Shown here piece after piece: positions 9,976 through 52,140 of a stretch of DNA of 64,000 bases. Each line of letters starts with the position of its first letter. The first letter of the stretch is position 1. Where the stretch lies: NCBI GenBank assembly GCA_965262775.1, contig CBDHFT010000006.1, positions 323,437 through 387,436 on the forward strand, given 5' to 3'. A program made the translations under genes and the position numbers. Below the pieces are notes generated by a model that saw only the letters and a list, made by a program, of their open reading frames with translations, made no database searches and had not been told where the DNA came from. This stretch comes from Alphaproteobacteria bacterium (GTDB lineage Bacteria > Pseudomonadota > Alphaproteobacteria > JASGCL01).

Positions 9976-10827
9976 ATGGAACAACCTCAGCAACAATATA
10001 CACTTGATGGTCAATCGGTGCATTTGATTTATAAATTAATGACGCAGGTCATGCCAACCTTTACCATTGCGGCGGAGGGGCAAAATATCCTTGATTTGAT
10101 AATCAACAGTATGTCGCACACCCAAAACCATGTGGGGGTGCTGTTGGATATTATGAAGATGACGGGTAAAAAAATTGTTGAGATTGTTCCTGATGACGAT
10201 GTTATCAAAAAGCATGATTTGACCAATGAAATTGAAAATCTAAAAAATTTGTTTAACCATTATAAAAGCGATAAACATTTTCTTAACGAATATGAAAAAG
10301 TCTATAGTTATGTATTTAATGTTTTGCAGAAAAAAAACGATATAAAAAAAGTTTTAGAAATTGGCTTGGGCACAAGAAACAAACAAGTGCCAGGCAACAT
10401 GACATGGAATAATTTTAGCGAGTGTGGCGGTTCTATCAGGTCATGGCGCGATTATTTACCCACCACACAAATATATGGTTGTGATGTTGATAGAACGGCT
10501 TTGTTCCAAGAAGAAAGAATAAAAACATATTTCGTCGACCAGCTATCGCCAAAAACTTTTGATGACCTGTTGGTTGAAACGGGTGGAGAATTTGATGTCA
10601 TTATTGATGATGGGTTGCATTATGTGCATGCCAATTTGAACAGCTTTGCTTTTGCCTTGCGGGCATTAAAAGCAGGGGGCGTTTTTGTGTTGGAGGATGT
10701 TGATATTATGTATAGCAAAGAAAATCATCTTTTTTGGCAAATGGTTGGCGGGTTGTTGCCCAGCCATTACCATTATGAAATTATCAAATGCAAAATGGCA
10801 CATGTTGTTATTTTTCAAAAGAAATAA
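9976..10827 (+). CDS. class I SAM-dependent methyltransferase, TylF/MycF/CmcI-like, with an unrelated ~115-aa N-terminal region
   Basis: Methyltransferase motifs VLEIGLG (motif I), IYGCDVD, and FDVIIDDGLH...LKAGGVFVLEDV (the TylF/CmcI-type D-x-DH core). Visibly more AT-rich than metG and tatD, which flank it at 34 nt and 3 nt. Confidence 0.6.
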   Translation: MEQPQQQYTLDGQSVHLIYKLMTQVMPTFTIAAEGQNILDLIINSMSHTQNHVGVLLDIMKMTGKKIVEIVPDDDVIKKHDLTNEIENLKNLFNHYKSDKHFLNEYEKVYSYVFNVLQKKNDIKKVLEIGLGTRNKQVPGNMTWNNFSECGGSIRSWRDYLPTTQIYGCDVDRTALFQEERIKTYFVDQLSPKTFDDLLVETGGEFDVIIDDGLHYVHANLNSFAFALRALKAGGVFVLEDVDIMYSKENHLFWQMVGGLLPSHYHYEIIKCKMAHVVIFQKK

Positions 10828-11631: not shown

Positions 11632-11870
11632 TTTGGCTTAATATTGGGTAGCAATCAAAATTTGAAAACTTAATGATAAAGCCCATTCATAATGGGGAAT
11701 AGGTTTTCACCCTTGGCGCGTTTGTTGACCGCCGTGTTGACCAAAATTTAGTTTTTGCTTTCGCTTAATTGTTTCATCGCGTCGTTCATAAATTTATCGG
11801 TTTGCATAACGGGCACGGCGTTAGATTCATAATAGGTGATAACGAATGATAAAAAGCGTAATAAAAAAAA

Positions 11871-11907
11871 CCCTTTAAGAATTTTTTCTTAAAGGGTCTT
11901 TTTTAAA
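11871..11907. terminator. bidirectional rho-independent terminator between the convergent tatD and pnp genes
   Basis: Stem CCCTTTAAGAA (11871-11881), loop TTTT, stem TTCTTAAAGGG (11886-11896), flanked by a T-run downstream and an A-run upstream. Confidence 0.75.
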
Positions 11908-11927
11908 TTTGTTTGATTGACGATTGT

Positions 11928-14354
11928 CTAAAAATCGCGGCGTCTTTTACCGCCGCCGCCACGACCGCCGCCGCCAAAACCACCGCCGCGGTCACCGCCA
12001 CGATCGTTGAAACGATTGCCAAAATCATCGCCTTCTTTAAATTCGCGCACGCGACCGCCGCCGAAACCGCCACGGTCACCGCCGCCACGATCTCTATCGC
12101 CGCCGCCGCCGCCGCGGCCGCCAAAGCCACCGCCGCCACGACCGCCGCCAAAACCACCGCGACCACCGCCGCCGCCGCGACCACCACGGTCGCCGCCGCC
12201 GCGTTCGCCACGGTCGCCTTTATTTTTTGGTTCTAAATTAAGGTCAGCACCCGTTTGTTGGTCAACCATGCGCATCGACAGGCTTACTTTGCCACGTTCG
12301 GTGCCCAGGCATTTTACCCAAACCATGTCGCCTTCTTTTACCATGTCGCTGGGGTGTTCAACGCGATGTTCGGCCATTTCGGACACATGCACCAAACCAT
12401 CTTTCGCACCCATGTAGGTTACGAACACGCCAAAATCAACGACTGACGCGACCTTGCCATGATATATTTTGCCCGCTTCGGCTTCGGCAACAATGCTTTG
12501 AATCCAATCATAAGCGGCTTTGCCTTTTGTTTCGTCGTTGGCCGCAATGGTGATAAGACCTTCGTCGTCAATATCAACCTTCGCGCCTGTTACTTCAACG
12601 ATTTCGCGGATAACCTTGCCGCCCGTGCCAATAACTTCGCGGATCTTTTCTTTGGGAACCGTGAAGGTTGTGAGGCGAGGGGCATTTTTCGATACTTCTT
12701 GGCGACCATGGTCAATGACCTTGGCCATTTCGCCCAATATATGCAAACGCCCTTGTTTGGCTTGAGCCAAGGCAATTTTCATAATATCGGCGGTGATAGA
12801 AGTGATTTTCAAATCCATTTGTAAGGAGGTGACGCCGTCTTTGGTGCCAGCCACTTTAAAATCCATATCGCCAAGGTGATCTTCATCACCCAAAATATCA
12901 GAAAGCACAGCATAATCGCCGCCTTCTTTTATCAAGCCCATGGCAATACCAGCGCAGGGTGCACTTAATGGCACACCAGCATCCATCATCGCCATCGAAC
13001 CACCGCAAACGGAGGCCATGGATGACGAACCGTTGGATTCGGTAATTTCAGAAACCAAACGGAGCATGTAGGGGAAATCATCTTTTTTGGGCAACAAGGG
13101 GCGCAGGGCACGCCATGCCAATTTGCCATGACCAATTTCACGACGGCCAGGTGAACCAATACGGCCAGCCTCGCCCACTGAAAATGGTGGGAAGTTATAA
13201 TGCAGCAAAAATTCTTCTTTGAATTCGCCGTCGATAGCATCGATAATTTGTTTATCTTGGGTGGTGCCCAGCGTGGCTATAACCAATGCTTGGGTTTCGC
13301 CACGGGTAAAGATAGCCGAGCCATGGGTTTTGCGTAACACACCCACTTTGCAATCGATTTGGCGGATGTCTTCTAACCCGCGACCATCAATACGTTTTTT
13401 GCTGGATAAAATATTGTGACGCACAATAGTTGCTTTTAAATCTTCTAACAACCTGGCAACCAATTGTTTGGCACCTGGTTGTTCCATATCGGCTTTGGCT
13501 TCGTTGGCCACGGCTTCCGCCACCAATTTTTTAACCGCATCCAAGGCCGCATAACGTTCTTGTTTTTTGGTTTGTTGGTAGGCCGATTTTAAAGCATCGG
13601 TTGCCACCTTCTCAATAATTTTTTTCAAATTGCTGGCGTAGGCGGGTTGTGCAGCAACCGCGCGCGTTGATTTGCCAACTTTTGCTTTTAATTCGTTAAT
13701 CATGTCGATAACTTCTTGCAAAGCCTTATGGCCAAAGGTAACGGCATCCAACATGGTTTCTTCGCTCAATTGGCTGGCTTCTGATTCGACCATCAAAACA
13801 CCTTCCTTGGTGCCCGCAACCACAAGGTCCAACATGGTGTCAACCAATTCGGATTTGGTGGGGTTCAATATGAATTGATCGTTTTTATAGGCAACACGGC
13901 AAGCACCAATGGGACCCAAAAAAGGAATATCAGAAATAGCCAAGGCCGCCGAGGAGCCAATCATGGCCGCAATATCAGGATCGTTTTCCAAATCATGAGA
14001 GAGCAGGGTGGCGATAATTTGAGTTTCGTTCTGAAAATTTTCAGCAAACAATGGGCGGATGGGCCTATCGATAAGGCGTGAGGTCAAAACTTCCTTTTCA
14101 GTTGGGCGACCTTCGCGTTTGAAAAAACCGCCAGGCACGCGCCCCGCGGCATAAAATTTTTCTTGGTAATGAACCGACAAGGGGAAAAAATCTTGTTCAG
14201 GTTTTGCTTCTTTCAACGCGACCACGGTGCATAATACCTGGGTATCGCCATAGGTTACGAGCATGGCACCGTCGGCTTGTCTTGCCAAATGCCCCGTTTC
14301 TAATTTTAGTGTTTTGCCGCCCCAGTTTTTTTCAACAACATGATGATTGAACAT
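11928..14354 (-). CDS. pnp: polyribonucleotide nucleotidyltransferase (PNPase) with a ~100-aa C-terminal RGG/Gly-Arg-rich tail
   Basis: Two RNase PH domains followed by KH and S1 domains, then a low-complexity tail ([27 protein letters not shown]...KRRRDF). At 808 aa it is about 100 aa longer than typical PNPase. Confidence 0.92.
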
Positions 14355-14414
14355 ATCGATTCTTTCTTTTATATTTTTTTTATATTATATTATTTTCCAT
14401 ATTTCGCGACGGCA

Positions 14415-14684
14415 CTATTTTCTTAGATCAAGCTTTTCGATAGTCGTTGTGTACAGTTTTTCGTCTTTTCGCTTCAAATAATTTAGCAAACGACGACGCT
14501 TACCGACCAGCAACAATAGCCCGCGCCGCGAATGAATATCCTTGGGGTGGGTTTCTAGATGGCTGGTGATATCTTTGATACGCGCGGTCATGATGGCTAC
14601 CTGCACTTCGGGCGAGCCAGTATCTTTTTGATTTCTAACAAAGTCTTTGATGGCCGTCTTTTTTGCGGCAGTGGAAAGAGTCAT
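14415..14684 (-). CDS. rpsO: 30S ribosomal protein S15
   Basis: 89-aa typical S15 sequence, immediately upstream of pnp in the classic rpsO-pnp arrangement. Confidence 0.92.
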
Positions 14685-21098: not shown

Positions 21099-21677
21099 TT
21101 ATTGATAGGGGTTTTTGATACCAAGGTTGGACAGCAATAGAATTTCTAAACGCTCCATCTTCTCAGCGGCTGATTTTTTATCATGATTAAAATCGAGGAG
21201 GTGTAGCAAACCATGTATCCCAAGATGCACCAGGTGGTGGCGAAAATCTTTGTTGGCTTCCCGTGCTTCTTCCTTGATAATACCATAACCCAGGGCGATG
21301 GAGCCCAAAAAAGCGCGGTGGGTGGGTTTGGGCAAGCCATGATTGCCCGCGCCAAGATTTGCCCCGTAGTTAGCCCCATGCTTCGCGCCAAGATTTGCCC
21401 CAGCGCGCGAGTCATGATGGGGAAAGGATAAAACATTGGTTGCCATGTCTTGTTGTAAAAAATCTTTTTTTAATTGTCGCATATGGTTGTCATGGGTGAA
21501 GAGAATTTCAAGCGAAGCGGTGCGGGGTGCGCCAGGAATAGTTTTGTAAATTTTTTTACATTGCTTGATTAAAAAATTCATGTCGGCCCTATCCCAATCC
21601 GCCGTGTCCTGCAGGGCGGTTATGCGCAAGGGGGTGAAGTTAAAAAACATTGTATGGATCCTATTGTCCTTTTCCAT
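21099..21677 (-). CDS. ybeY: rRNA maturation endoribonuclease YbeY, with an internal ~37-aa repeat-derived insertion
   Basis: H..HG.LHLLG(Y/F)DH zinc motif present as HLVHLGIHGLLHLLDFNHD. At 192 aa versus roughly 155 typical, because of a GANLGAKHGANYGANLGAG insert encoded by a 36-bp tandem repeat. Confidence 0.85.
   Translation of the reverse strand: MEKDNRIHTMFFNFTPLRITALQDTADWDRADMNFLIKQCKKIYKTIPGAPRTASLEILFTHDNHMRQLKKDFLQQDMATNVLSFPHHDSRAGANLGAKHGANYGANLGAGNHGLPKPTHRAFLGSIALGYGIIKEEAREANKDFRHHLVHLGIHGLLHLLDFNHDKKSAAEKMERLEILLLSNLGIKNPYQ
21349..21420. repeat. imperfect 36-bp tandem duplication inside ybeY (CGCGCCAAGATTTGCCCC core at 21348-21365 and again at 21384-21401)
   Basis: Direct repeat read from the sequence; it encodes the Gly/Ala/Asn-rich insertion in YbeY. 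Confidence 0.7.
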
Positions 21678-21681
21678 TATC

Positions 21682-22695
21682 CTATGTGGGGTTAGAATCG
21701 TTTGCTTTTTTTGTCAAAAATTCTTTACGCGGTTTTGGGCCTTTTGTTTCTGAATCCACATTATAGGCGGCGATAATTTTTTTTACCAGGCCATGGCGTT
21801 GAACGTCGCTGGTGTCGAATTCTACCATGCCAACTTCTGGAAAGGTTGCTAGTTTTTTTATGGCATCTTGTAGGCCTGATTGATCTTTATGGCTTAGGTC
21901 GGTTTGCGACCCATCGCCCGTTATTACCATTTTGCTACGCTCGCCCAAACGGGTTAAAAACATTTTCATTTGCATTGTTTTGGTGTTTTGAGCCTCATCA
22001 AGTAAAATAAAGGCGCGTTTTAATGTTCGCCCGCGCATGTAGGCCAGGGGCGCAATTTCTATCTGCCCCGATTCTTTTAATTTTTTCACTTGGTCGGTTC
22101 CCAATATTTCACCTACCGCATCGTCAATTGGTCGCAGGTAAGGATCAATTTTTTCTGTCAAATCGCCAGGCAAAAAGCCAAGGCTTTCCCCAGCCTCGAC
22201 CACGGGACGGGTGATAATCATTTTCTCCACCGCGCCCGATAAAACCAACGACAAACCATAGGCCACCGCGAGATAGGTTTTACCGCTACCCGCCGCGCCA
22301 ATGCCAAATGTTAAATCTTTTGCCTGCATGGTGGCGATGAATTTTTGTTGGTTAGCGGTGCGCAGTTGGATGCGTTTATGTTTTACCACCAGGGTCGCCA
22401 ACGGGTCGCCCGAATCGTCGGGCGGGGTATCCATCATGGCATATTGCTGGTTGTTGATAATCCGCTCCATGGTTGAATCGATATCCTCGGCCAATATACG
22501 TTGTTCGTAAATGGTGCGCAAAATTTTTTCCGCCAGGACGATATTTTTTTTATCGCCTGACAATTTTAATATATTGCCACGGTCGCTAATATCAATCGCC
22601 AGCAACCTTTCTAACGCTGAGAGGTTTTTTCTTCCCACGCCATAAAGTTCTGGCAGGCGACGGTTGTCGTTAAATTCTAAAAGTCTTTGCTCCAT
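21682..22695 (-). CDS. phoH: PhoH-like ATPase (YbeZ)
   Basis: P-loop GIGAAGSGKTYLAVA and a PhoH family core; sits in the ybeZ-ybeY-ybeX arrangement. Confidence 0.88.
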   Translation of the reverse strand: MEQRLLEFNDNRRLPELYGVGRKNLSALERLLAIDISDRGNILKLSGDKKNIVLAEKILRTIYEQRILAEDIDSTMERIINNQQYAMMDTPPDDSGDPLATLVVKHKRIQLRTANQQKFIATMQAKDLTFGIGAAGSGKTYLAVAYGLSLVLSGAVEKMIITRPVVEAGESLGFLPGDLTEKIDPYLRPIDDAVGEILGTDQVKKLKESGQIEIAPLAYMRGRTLKRAFILLDEAQNTKTMQMKMFLTRLGERSKMVITGDGSQTDLSHKDQSGLQDAIKKLATFPEVGMVEFDTSDVQRHGLVKKIIAAYNVDSETKGPKPRKEFLTKKANDSNPT

Positions 22696-22709
22696 TTTTT
22701 ATTATTTTA

Positions 22710-24200
22710 TTAACCTATTATATTCTGTTCGTCGGGTTGTTGATAGGATGTATATGGCTGCGGCGCGCTACCCATGACACTTGGCGCGGCGTGATGAGCC
22801 AGCCGCCCAAACAGGCTATGTTTTTCGGTGTGGGTGATGGTTATTTTTTCTAACTTACCGATGAGGCTGGTTGAGGCTTCGCCCGCCAAATGACCATCTA
22901 TGTTGCCAGATTCATTGCTGGGTGCCATAAAATGAACAGGCTGGAGCCAGGGGGAACGCCCCATCAATTGCCCAGCTTTGTGGGTGGTTTTTTCCACCAA
23001 CACATCGATGGTTTTGCCAACCGTGGCGCGGTTAAATTTTTCTTCTTGCTGATTAAGCAGGGCCTGCAGACGTTGCAAACGGCTTGATTTGATATCGTCA
23101 GGCACCTGGGCCATGGTGGCGGCGGGCGTGCCGAGGCGTGGTGAATAGCAAAAAGAATAACAGGCGCTGTAGCCAATTTTTTCCACCGCCGACAAGGTCA
23201 TAGCAAAATCTTCTTCTTCCTCGCCAGGGAAGCCAACGATAAAATCCGAAGACAGGGCAATATCGGGGCAGGCGGATTTTATTTTATCAATGACTGTCAT
23301 ATAATCTTGAAGACTATGGCCACGGTTCATCGCCTTTAATATTTTATCGCTACCACTTTGTAGGGGGAGATGCAGGAAGGGCTGTAATTTCTTATTGCGA
23401 ACATGTTCCATTATCAATTCATCGTGCATGTCTAATAGATGCGATGTCACATAACGAATCCTTAATAATCCATCGATGTTTGATAATTCGGCTAGCAATT
23501 GCGCCAAGTTCCACGTTTTGCCCTGTGGCCCCAAACCATGCCAGCCATTGACATTTTGACCGAGCAGGGTAATTTCGCGCGCGCCCGCCGCCACCAATTT
23601 TTTTGCTTCGCGTTCAATATCGACATAGGGGCGCGAGAATTCGGCACCACGGGTGTAGGGCACAACGCAAAAACTACAAAACTTATCGCAACCTTCCTGG
23701 ATGGCTAAAAATTGCGAGACAGCCATGTTGGTTGGATTGGTTATCAATTCTTCTTGCAAATAATCAAATTTGCTTTCCACGGGGAATTCAATGTCGGCGA
23801 TGCGTTTTTTTAATGTTTGGCGGCGCGTCAACAATTCGGGAAGGCGGTGATAATTTTGCGTGCCAACCACAATATCTATCCTGGGTTTTTGTTTTTGCAT
23901 TTCTATCCCCATGCTCTGCGCGGTGCAACCCGCCAGGGTTAAGACGCAATCTTTTTTCATCAAACGTTCCAACCGCCCAATGTCAGATAAAACCTTGCTG
24001 TCGGCTTTTTCACGAATATGACAAGTATTAAGAATAACCATGTCGGCTTCTTCCACTTGGTTGGTTTCAGAAAAACCCATGGGTGCCAACTGCATTTTCA
24101 TGCGGTCGGCGTCGTAGACATTCATCTGACAGCCGTAGCTTTTGATAAATAATTTTTTATCGGTTGTGGGGGGATTGATGTTATCCAAAGGGTTGGACAT
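22710..24200 (-). CDS. miaB: tRNA-i6A37 methylthiotransferase MiaB
   Basis: UPF0004 N-terminal domain with its three cysteines, radical-SAM CxxxCxxC (CDKFCSFCVVP), and a TRAM domain. A C-terminal ~30-aa extension is present. Confidence 0.88.
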   Translation of the reverse strand: MSNPLDNINPPTTDKKLFIKSYGCQMNVYDADRMKMQLAPMGFSETNQVEEADMVILNTCHIREKADSKVLSDIGRLERLMKKDCVLTLAGCTAQSMGIEMQKQKPRIDIVVGTQNYHRLPELLTRRQTLKKRIADIEFPVESKFDYLQEELITNPTNMAVSQFLAIQEGCDKFCSFCVVPYTRGAEFSRPYVDIEREAKKLVAAGAREITLLGQNVNGWHGLGPQGKTWNLAQLLAELSNIDGLLRIRYVTSHLLDMHDELIMEHVRNKKLQPFLHLPLQSGSDKILKAMNRGHSLQDYMTVIDKIKSACPDIALSSDFIVGFPGEEEEDFAMTLSAVEKIGYSACYSFCYSPRLGTPAATMAQVPDDIKSSRLQRLQALLNQQEEKFNRATVGKTIDVLVEKTTHKAGQLMGRSPWLQPVHFMAPSNESGNIDGHLAGEASTSLIGKLEKITITHTEKHSLFGRLAHHAAPSVMGSAPQPYTSYQQPDEQNIIG

Positions 24201-27652: not shown

Positions 27653-27727
27653 GTGCGCGTAGCTCAGCGGTAGAGCACCTGACTTTTAATCAGGGGGTCG
27701 AGGGTTCGAACCCCTCCGCGCATACCA
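27653..27727 (+). tRNA. tRNA-Lys(UUU)
   Basis: Cloverleaf: acceptor GTGCGCG/CGCGCAT, D arm GCTC..GAGC, anticodon loop CTTTTAA, T loop TTCGAAC, and CCA encoded. Confidence 0.9.
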
Positions 27728-37300: not shown

Positions 37301-37375
37301 TGGTGCCGCAGAGAGGAATCGGACCTCCGGCCTTACCCTTACCAAGGGTATGCTCTACCACTGAGCTACTGCGGC
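37301..37375 (-). tRNA. tRNA-Thr(GGU), with a non-canonical C at T-loop position 55
   Basis: Reverse complement folds as acceptor GCCGCAG/CTGCGGC, anticodon loop TTGGTAA, T arm GGAGG-TCCGATT-CCTCT, with CCA encoded. Confidence 0.75.
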
Positions 37376-37637: not shown

Positions 37638-37712
37638 GCGGATGTAGCTCAGCGGTAGAGCGCCACCTTGCCAAGGTGGATGCCGTGGGTTCGATCCCCA
37701 TCATCCGCTCCA
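37638..37712 (+). tRNA. tRNA-Gly(GCC)
   Basis: Acceptor GCGGATG/CATCCGC, anticodon loop TTGCCAA, T loop TTCGATC, and CCA encoded. Confidence 0.88.

Positions 37713-51979: not shown

Positions 51980-52140
<161 letters not shown>

Follow-up and report, generated by a model that had tools for sequence, protein, structure and literature searches.

Why should a bacterial polynucleotide phosphorylase (PNPase) end in a hundred or so residues made largely of glycine and arginine, and what could such an end be good for? The question is raised by the pnp gene in a 64,000-nucleotide stretch of contig CBDHFT010000006.1 (assembly GCA_965262775.1, an alphaproteobacterium), the whole of which we call the window. 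A preliminary description of this DNA, made from the sequence alone, had proposed that a canonical PNPase continues beyond its S1 domain into a tail rich in RGG triplets, of a type that binds RNA and promotes condensates. As far as the protein itself is concerned this proposal is borne out, since the open reading frame (ORF), the Pfam and TIGR03591 matches and an AlphaFold2 (AF2) prediction all agree on a canonical enzyme followed by a real coding tail of RGG type that is predicted to be disordered. Comparison with the sequences of relatives indicates, in addition, that the tail is a genuine coding extension under purifying selection. This makes it a further case of a basic disordered extension on a bacterial enzyme of RNA metabolism.

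The tail and its conservation in close relatives

The S1 domain ends with the residues KVSLSMR at position 695, and the same frame continues for 113 residues, first as a 17-residue linker and then as a 96-residue RG-rich tail (Table 1). The span 11928-12260, to which the preliminary description had drawn attention, comprises the stop codon and the last 110 codons, and the RG-rich part proper corresponds to residues 713-808 (11931-12218). Among the 113 post-S1 residues there are 52 Gly, 19 Arg, 12 Asp and 8 Phe, with 11 RGG and 4 FGG triplets. The tail has an isoelectric point (pI) of 11.1 and a net charge of about +6.5, as against an acidic core (pI 6.0, net charge about -9). The RGG triplets at residues 718, 723, 726, 732 and 739 are spaced by at most 4 residues, which is a tri-RGG arrangement (at least three RGG with gaps of 0-4). 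Such an arrangement is said to be the operational definition of an RGG/GAR (glycine-arginine-rich) box, reportedly due to Thandapani et al. 2013. An Asp stands directly before an Arg in 7 of the 10 cases present in residues 713-808, giving the DRGG unit, and this patterning is not what shuffled sequences produce (p = 3.5e-4).

Residues 711-808 are predicted to be disordered, with no secondary structure and AF2 confidence values (predicted local distance difference test, pLDDT) below 50, about 27-38, while the core of the same model, built on a 48-sequence alignment, has values mostly of 75-95. The Pfam scan of the 808-residue protein found no domain past residue 694, AF2 predicted no membrane-targeting helix in the tail, and neither Pfam nor NCBIfam gave an RNase E/G catalytic domain anywhere in the protein.

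The core is that of an ordinary PNPase. Its Pfam domain order is RNase_PH twice, RNase_PH_C, PNPase, KH_1 (563-615) and S1 (625-694); the PNPase equivalog TIGR03591 covers residues 11-696 with 1035.5 bits (cutoff 525), and NF008805 scores 1003.5 bits (cutoff 471). The closest solved structure is that of Caulobacter crescentus PNPase (4AM3/4AID, aligned to residues 10-707 with 908 bits). Core residues, those of the second PH domain's D486-K500 segment included, are invariant across the 48 aligned PNPases, ours among them.

At the DNA level the tail is a degenerate tandem repeat with periods of 3, 24 and 27, and has 66-70% GC where the window as a whole has 45.7%. No other RG-rich stretch of 30 amino acids is encoded in the window, whichever of the six frames is read. 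The preliminary description had also remarked that this GC-rich repeat generates spurious ORFs on the opposite strand; there are indeed two of these, and a third lies in another frame of the minus strand. Conservation, as well as the ratio of non-synonymous to synonymous substitution rates (dN/dS), tracks the PNPase frame rather than any of the overlapping ones.

Table 1. Position of pnp, of the parts of its product and of other features in the window (an empty cell means that nothing was recorded)
Feature	Coordinates	Strand	Basis or remark
pnp ORF, 808 aa and stop, complete	11928..14354	-	tail sequence quoted in the preliminary description matches exactly
Canonical PNPase core, residues 1-695 (two RNase PH domains, helical domain, KH, S1)	12270..14354	-	Pfam, NCBIfam
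Post-S1 linker, residues 696-712	12219..12269	-	VDQxTG part common to alphaproteobacterial PNPases; Q699 and G702 invariant (48-sequence alignment)
RGG block 1, residues 713-767 (8 RGG; DRGG and FGG units)	12054..12218	-	pLDDT ~27-38
Non-RGG island, residues 768-784 (contains GGGRVREF)	12003..12053	-	tail alignment
RGG block 2, residues 785-802 (3 RGG)	11949..12002	-	Gly-run length differs between strains (808-, 810- and 811-aa variants)
C-terminal KRRRDF, residues 803-808, candidate short linear motif	11931..11948	-	tail alignment
Intrinsic terminator, 31 nt past the pnp stop, 12-bp stem between A and T runs	11862..11897	-	consensus scan
Spurious low-complexity ORF, Ala/Thr-rich	11913..12236	+	overlaps tail repeat
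Spurious low-complexity ORF, Pro-rich	12007..12417	+	overlaps tail repeat
Spurious ORF in other minus-strand frame, Ala/Val-rich	11903..12211	-	overlaps tail repeat
rpsO (ribosomal protein S15, 89 aa), directly upstream of pnp	14414..14684	-	Pfam Ribosomal_S15, E=8e-35
ORF of 283 aa between metG and tatD	9976-10827	+	no Pfam match at E <= 1e-5
miaB-phoH-ybeY-corC cluster, ordinary	21099-24200	-	YbeY is the sole other RNase in the window
Four tRNA genes	27653-27724, 37304-37375, 37638-37709, 51980-52066		only Rfam matches at gathering threshold

An identical 808-residue protein is on record independently (P0237, from a 412-kb contig). At least six assemblies that are independent of one another have the tail, with the reading frame open to its end in all of them (Table 2), and the architecture as such is met in seven or more assemblies, for which different technologies were used. 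The window and its nearest relative, L001, differ by in-frame indels only, of 3 and 9 nt, and indels elsewhere are likewise multiples of three. A stop codon is conserved after KRRRDF and is followed by the terminator, whose hairpin is equally present in L001 and which can work in both directions, its stem being flanked by A and T runs. The preliminary description had itself named two findings that would speak against the tail, an assembly artefact of the GC-rich repeat and a non-coding orthologous region; both are excluded by the number of independent assemblies, by the in-frame indels and by the low dN/dS. One of the relatives (P0002/L007, GCA_030054115.1) is labelled 'Hydrotalea sp.' (Bacteroidota), and since its sequence and synteny are alphaproteobacterial it is probably mis-binned or mislabelled.

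Table 2. Relatives carrying the tail, with tail substitutions and dN/dS in comparison with the window (MAG, metagenome-assembled genome)
Relative	Source	Core identity	Length	Tail syn/non-syn	Tail dN/dS	Core dN/dS
L001 / P0001	complete 1.63-Mb MAG chromosome OZ241918.1	99%	810 aa	16/1	0.019	0.012
P0236	Logan contig, same 90% cluster as P0001		811 aa			
P0002 (= L007)	GCA_030054115.1 and two Logan runs	90%	807 aa	46/12	0.065	0.059
L002	sea-cave MAG	86%	805 aa	25/24	0.27	0.06
P0003 (L014)	GCA_026461545.1	83%	753 aa, tail 58 aa			
P0004	SRR32617085	71%	763 aa, tail 64 aa			
L010		71%		22/24	0.10	0.08

The tail dN/dS values of Table 2 are biased low, since an aligner matches like residues with like where complexity is low. 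Despite this bias, the many synonymous changes at Gly and Arg codons whose amino acid is kept are, by these alignments, unlike what one finds in neutral or non-coding DNA. Two short islands stand out in the alignment of the tails: GGGRVREF is kept in the window, L001, L002 and L007, four out of the five lineages in the alignment, with a core dS of 1.1-1.5 for L007 and L002, that is, past synonymous saturation, and KRRRDF is identical in the window, L001, L002, L007 and the more distant L010. The length of the tail varies from 58 to 115 residues within the clade, strain variants of the whole protein having 808, 810 and 811 residues.

Tails behind the S1 domain in other PNPases

Is such a tail, then, a peculiarity of this clade? 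The preliminary description implied that an RGG tail on a PNPase is rare, and this does not hold, as Gly-Arg tails follow the S1 domain on PNPases of many unrelated lineages. Judged from sequence comparisons at two different depths, the long tail is unusual among near relatives and is not unusual among PNPases at large. For the closest 119 full-length homologues (core identity at least 62%, mostly Alphaproteobacteria) the median post-S1 tail has 28 residues, and only 6 of the 119 have tails of 60 residues or more, three of them from this clade and three with 150-residue tails rich in Arg-Asp and Arg-Glu (RD/RE-rich).

At greater distance the picture depends on how one searches. A homology search with the tail only yielded 8000 candidates sharing words with it and none at E <= 0.001; the signal is removed here by the composition correction of HMMER, and for this reason the S1 domain together with the tail was used as query instead. 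This second search returned 112 proteins, nearly all of them C-terminal fragments of PNPases (KH and S1) with S1 identities of 29-66%, in a sample that is biased because the candidate step favours proteins with RG-rich words. Three or more RGG occur in post-S1 tails of 50-146 residues in 89 of the 97 matches that could be anchored, which makes at least 89 clusters of PNPase C-termini or S1 proteins with such tails, and repeated DRGG occurs in 69 of the 112 matches. Three of the RGG-tailed matches, lying on contigs of 92-736 kb, were confirmed in rpsO-pnp operons. Many database entries are fragments or lie on contigs of 1-3 kb, so that length statistics drawn from the databases undercount RGG tails. 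In the three matches confirmed in operons, which come from long-read metagenomes of unrelated bacteria (L011 1889-4079, L012 1671-3980, L013 1927-4337), the RGG-tailed pnp is itself split into 2-3 fragments, apparently by frameshift errors.

An unbiased sample was obtained from the best 150 representatives at 50% identity. Tails of at least 50 residues were present in 52 of 141 (37%), tails of at least 80 residues in 23, and three or more RGG in 8; the remaining long tails are either N/S/K-rich or RD/RE-rich. The PNPase of Ehrlichia chaffeensis (ABD45222.1, P0241; 796 residues) has a tail of 103 residues. An aromatic C-terminus preceded by a basic run (KRRFF, KPRFF or RKYF) is found in 23 of 54 long tails and in 10 of 81 short ones (Fisher p = 9e-5), that of Ehrlichia chaffeensis included. 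Our own KRRRDF resembles these endings in its basic run and terminal Phe without matching them strictly, as it has an Asp where the KRRFF-type tails have an aromatic residue. The core of the window's PNPase is 47-51% identical to those of RFF-type PNPases, no more than to those of tail-less ones, and the tails themselves cannot be aligned; as the core shows no specific affinity, the shared terminus may be due to convergence or to chance.

A literature search found no paper that describes RGG, disordered or extended C-terminal tails of PNPase (which does not prove that none exists), and a match to 'glycine-arginine rich' concerned the WGR motif of a DNA ligase and not PNPase. From these sequence surveys, the RGG tail appears to be one case of a recurrent and apparently unstudied class of PNPase tails.

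Several variants of this theme deserve mention in their own right. Sphingomonad-type PNPase tails (Allosphingosinicella, Tsuneonella; P0124-P0135, P0139-P0141, P0144, P0175, P0196) have GDRGPRRDGGG repeats and the terminus PEFAPAFLT(R/G)DDD, also given as PEFAPAFLTRDDD, a conserved acidic-hydrophobic end that is a candidate motif distinct from KRRRDF. Three PNPases, P0258 (1219 aa), P0296 (1091 aa) and P0274 (1042 aa), have RD/RE-rich repeat tails of 330-530 residues, with units such as ERDERPxAKxRDF, and these are comparable in size and charge pattern to the scaffold domains of RNase E. In P0240 (983 aa) the extension seems, by eye, to contain an extra S1-like segment.

Similar modules were also met outside PNPase. 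The S1-domain RNA-binding proteins of Paenibacillus (about 170 aa; P0195, P0200, P0206, P0220 and relatives) have an internal RG-rich segment and then a conserved helix-like end, FEDK(M/V)SRFLKDSEERISSLKKNTEGKRGGRGARRD, so that the RG-rich module again follows an S1 domain, on a protein other than PNPase. P0231, a metagenomic ribosomal protein S6 (PF01250), has a C-terminal tail of GDRGGFGG repeats. To judge from this case, DRGG/FGG tails may be a repeated feature of several RNA-binding proteins in bacteria.

What the tail may do

In its composition the tail resembles the eukaryotic RGG/GAR boxes (fibrillarin, nucleolin, FUS, hnRNP U, LAF-1), with which it shares clustered RGG, interspersed Phe-Gly and Asp-Arg, and predicted disorder beside a folded RNA-binding domain. 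Here, however, it sits on the phosphorolytic exoribonuclease of a bacterium, and RNA binding may be supposed for it by analogy only; as the composition is convergent, no common descent with the eukaryotic boxes is implied. We know of no arginine methyltransferase system in the host bacterium and, to our knowledge, methylation by protein arginine methyltransferases is not to be expected in bacteria.

We consider the helicases RhlE1 and RhlE2 of P. aeruginosa (PMC11260450) to be the best functional analogy, because there too a disordered C-terminal region is attached to an enzyme of RNA metabolism, and these basic regions promote RNA binding, phase separation and, in RhlE2, interaction with RNase E. 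The core enzyme is different, and neither extension is of the RGG type, that of RhlE1 being Lys-rich and that of RhlE2 basic with poly-Gln. A second likeness is with the C-terminal scaffold of RNase E (the AR-rich segments of E. coli, or the charge-block domain of Caulobacter that forms bacterial ribonucleoprotein bodies, BR-bodies), which is also disordered, Arg-containing and provided with embedded short motifs, and also belongs to the RNA-decay machinery. In our case, by contrast, the disorder sits on the client PNPase and extends over about 100 residues, as against 400-500. The likeness is functional only. In Caulobacter the C-terminal domain of RNase E condenses with RNA, recruits PNPase via EKPRRGWWRR and stimulates it (PMC10412687), and in cyanobacteria the contact between PNPase and RNase E involves an Arg-rich nonapeptide (PMC3964918). 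BR-body scaffolds carry a net negative charge (PMC13616956).

The other long PNPase tails (Ehrlichia chaffeensis, metagenomic sequences) likewise start directly after S1 and have 50-150 residues. They are basic, many of them are rich in RGG and DRGG as ours is, and their last residues are often a basic run and an aromatic one; they differ in spacer composition, which is lineage-specific, and our terminus is KRRRDF and not KRRFF or PRFF. The PNPase of Caulobacter crescentus (PDB 4AM3, 4AID, 4AIM) has the same domain order, in deposited chains of 717-726 residues, and no solved structure covers anything like residues 713-808 of the protein studied here.

How could such a tail work? PNPase is a trimer whose portal for incoming RNA is built from the KH and S1 domains (PMC3376730), as structures from Caulobacter and E. 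coli have established, so that there should be three tails per enzyme around the pore. By analogy with RGG/GAR boxes and with the extensions of helicases and RNase E, these tails may act as electrostatic, multivalent RNA-binding arms of low specificity at the S1/KH portal. Such arms would raise the rate of RNA capture and its residence at the portal, for structured or G-rich substrates as well, and their multivalency would favour the formation of higher-order ribonucleoprotein (RNP) assemblies, or partitioning into them. GGGRVREF and KRRRDF would then be candidate short linear motifs for docking to a partner, or to a second PNPase trimer, and the RG-rich stretches between them would evolve fast by in-frame repeat slippage with their composition kept. 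A comparable layout is known from the single-stranded DNA-binding protein SSB, in which an OB fold is followed by a Gly-rich disordered linker and by a conserved acidic tip, DDDIPF, that binds partners in DNA metabolism. The window's PNPase, with its OB-type S1, its Gly-rich linker and a tip ending in Phe, resembles SSB as an analogy of layout only, since its tip is basic and its linker Arg-rich.

The combined reading, towards which we lean, if only slightly, and largely by analogy, is this: RGG arms would capture RNA multivalently and promote or join RNP assemblies, the islands being candidate docking motifs. Its support comes from the continuity of the tail with a canonical core in an rpsO-pnp operon, from its presence in independent assemblies and the purifying selection on it, from its predicted lack of structure, from the RGG composition, which is held against the bias of the genome, from the non-random DR patterning, from the recurrence of RGG tails on PNPases of unrelated lineages, and from the precedents of RhlE and of Caulobacter RNase E.

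There are also several observations that weigh against this reading, and the reader should have them together. The tail dN/dS rises well above that of the core in the comparison with L002, and all the tail ratios share the low bias mentioned above. The relative P0003/L014 is without the GGGRVREF island and without the terminal DF, ending in KKRR. The exact length of the tail is not essential, since it is polymorphic and is far shorter in the close relatives P0003 and P0004. With 12 Asp and 4 Glu, the net charge of the tail is only moderately positive. The AF2 model gives no docking of the C-terminus of the tail in cis onto the protomer and no confident contact (pLDDT about 27-30 throughout), and the literature search brought up no binding, activity or localisation data for any PNPase tail.

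The rival that we take most seriously, doubtful as it seems to us, is that the tail is a tether for protein docking, in which the RG stretches are a flexible spacer and the islands bind a partner (RNase E, a helicase, Hfq, the ribosome or another PNPase trimer). This would reverse the usual polarity, in which a C-terminal peptide of RNase E binds PNPase. It is true that nothing in the tail but the islands is invariant among lineages past a dS of 1, that long PNPase tails are enriched for the basic-aromatic terminus, that sphingomonad-type tails end in another conserved motif, PEFAPAFLTRDDD, and that PNPase-RNase E contacts elsewhere use short basic or aromatic C-terminal peptides (PMC10412687, PMC3964918). 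However, a pure spacer would have no need of DR patterning, or of an RGG composition that is maintained in spite of the GC bias, P0003 does without both the DF and the RVREF island, the AF2 model offers no confident contact, and the core is no closer to RFF-type than to tail-less PNPases, so that the resemblance of the termini may be convergent or fortuitous.

A second rival, decidedly unlikely in our opinion, is a near-neutral expansion of low-complexity sequence without a specific function, arising by slippage of GGC, GGT and CGY repeats where the gene ends; the protein would tolerate this expansion because S1 has a solvent-exposed C-terminus. The tandem-repeat nature of the DNA, the length variants between strains and the spread of lengths between relatives are what one would expect from such a process, and the short median tail of the closest 119 homologues tells us that PNPase works without a long one. 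What one would not expect is a tail dN/dS on a par with the core's for the two closest relatives, where Gly and Arg codons show numerous synonymous changes, nor the maintenance of the tail beyond synonymous saturation with a composition that opposes the mutational bias, nor the conserved islands, the non-random DR patterning and the repeated appearance of such tails in unrelated PNPase lineages. The hypothesis is thus weakened and not eliminated, because the tail length does vary from 58 to 115 residues within the clade.

It could also be imagined that selection acts on the RNA, a G-rich 3' structure of the mRNA guarding it against 3' exonucleases or helping PNPase autoregulation, with the peptide as a by-product; we find this very improbable. 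The 411-nt 3' end (tail codons and terminator, 11860-12270) does fold at -206 kcal/mol, with z = -8.3 against dinucleotide shuffles, but this excess stability probably comes largely from the terminator hairpin (20 pairs in the fold; a 12-bp stem by the consensus scan) and from the self-similarity of the repeat. Moreover, the tail accepts many synonymous substitutions and retains its amino acids, whereas selection on the RNA would predict the reverse, and relatives hold the composition of the peptide with different repeat arrangements. Finally, an artefact, whether from a GC-rich repeat that was collapsed or made chimeric or from a frameshift by which non-coding DNA was joined to the gene, is hardly credible, for although GC-rich repeats are error-prone and RGG-tailed pnp genes are frameshift-split in the three long-read metagenomes of other species, the identical P0237, the independent assemblies with their in-frame indels, and the conserved stop followed by a terminator all contradict it.

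The surroundings of pnp and the wider meaning

The preliminary description had suggested that the tail might hold PNPase in a degradosome-like assembly or stand in for the scaffold of RNase E. No RNase E, helicase, Hfq or second RG-rich protein was found in the 64 kb, which contain housekeeping genes only. The order rpsO-pnp is that of the canonical operon and is the same in the relatives L007, L010 and L014, and the block truB-rpsO-pnp / tatD-metG-holB-tmk-ruvB is common to the window and its relatives. The Rfam scan at gathering threshold found no rRNA, riboswitch or leader near pnp.

Within this block the site between metG and tatD is variable. The 283-residue ORF that occupies it in the window lies in DNA of locally 26-32% GC and has, by eye, a VLEIGLG motif like that of S-adenosylmethionine-dependent methyltransferases; L007 is without a gene there, its pnp and tatD being separated by a DUF3800 gene, and both genes are missing from L010. 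These comparisons make the ORF appear to be a small, variable insertion, the rest of the block being syntenic.

Taken as a single locus, this is an ordinary housekeeping gene extended by low-complexity sequence, and its value lies in the pattern, which is recurrent and selected. The literature treats PNPase as a folded client, brought into degradosomes and BR-bodies by RNase E. One may go further and conjecture, although we think it rather unlikely, that basic disordered PNPase tails, of which the one described here would be a clear case, are widespread and unrecognised modules for RNA capture or condensate formation with a docking terminus, by which PNPase organises its own degradosome-like bodies or tethers itself to a partner. 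If PNPase does bind RNA through such tails and is driven by them to assemble, the organisation of RNA decay would depart from the models established for E. coli and Caulobacter in many bacteria that are uncultured or host-associated, Rickettsiales such as Ehrlichia among them.

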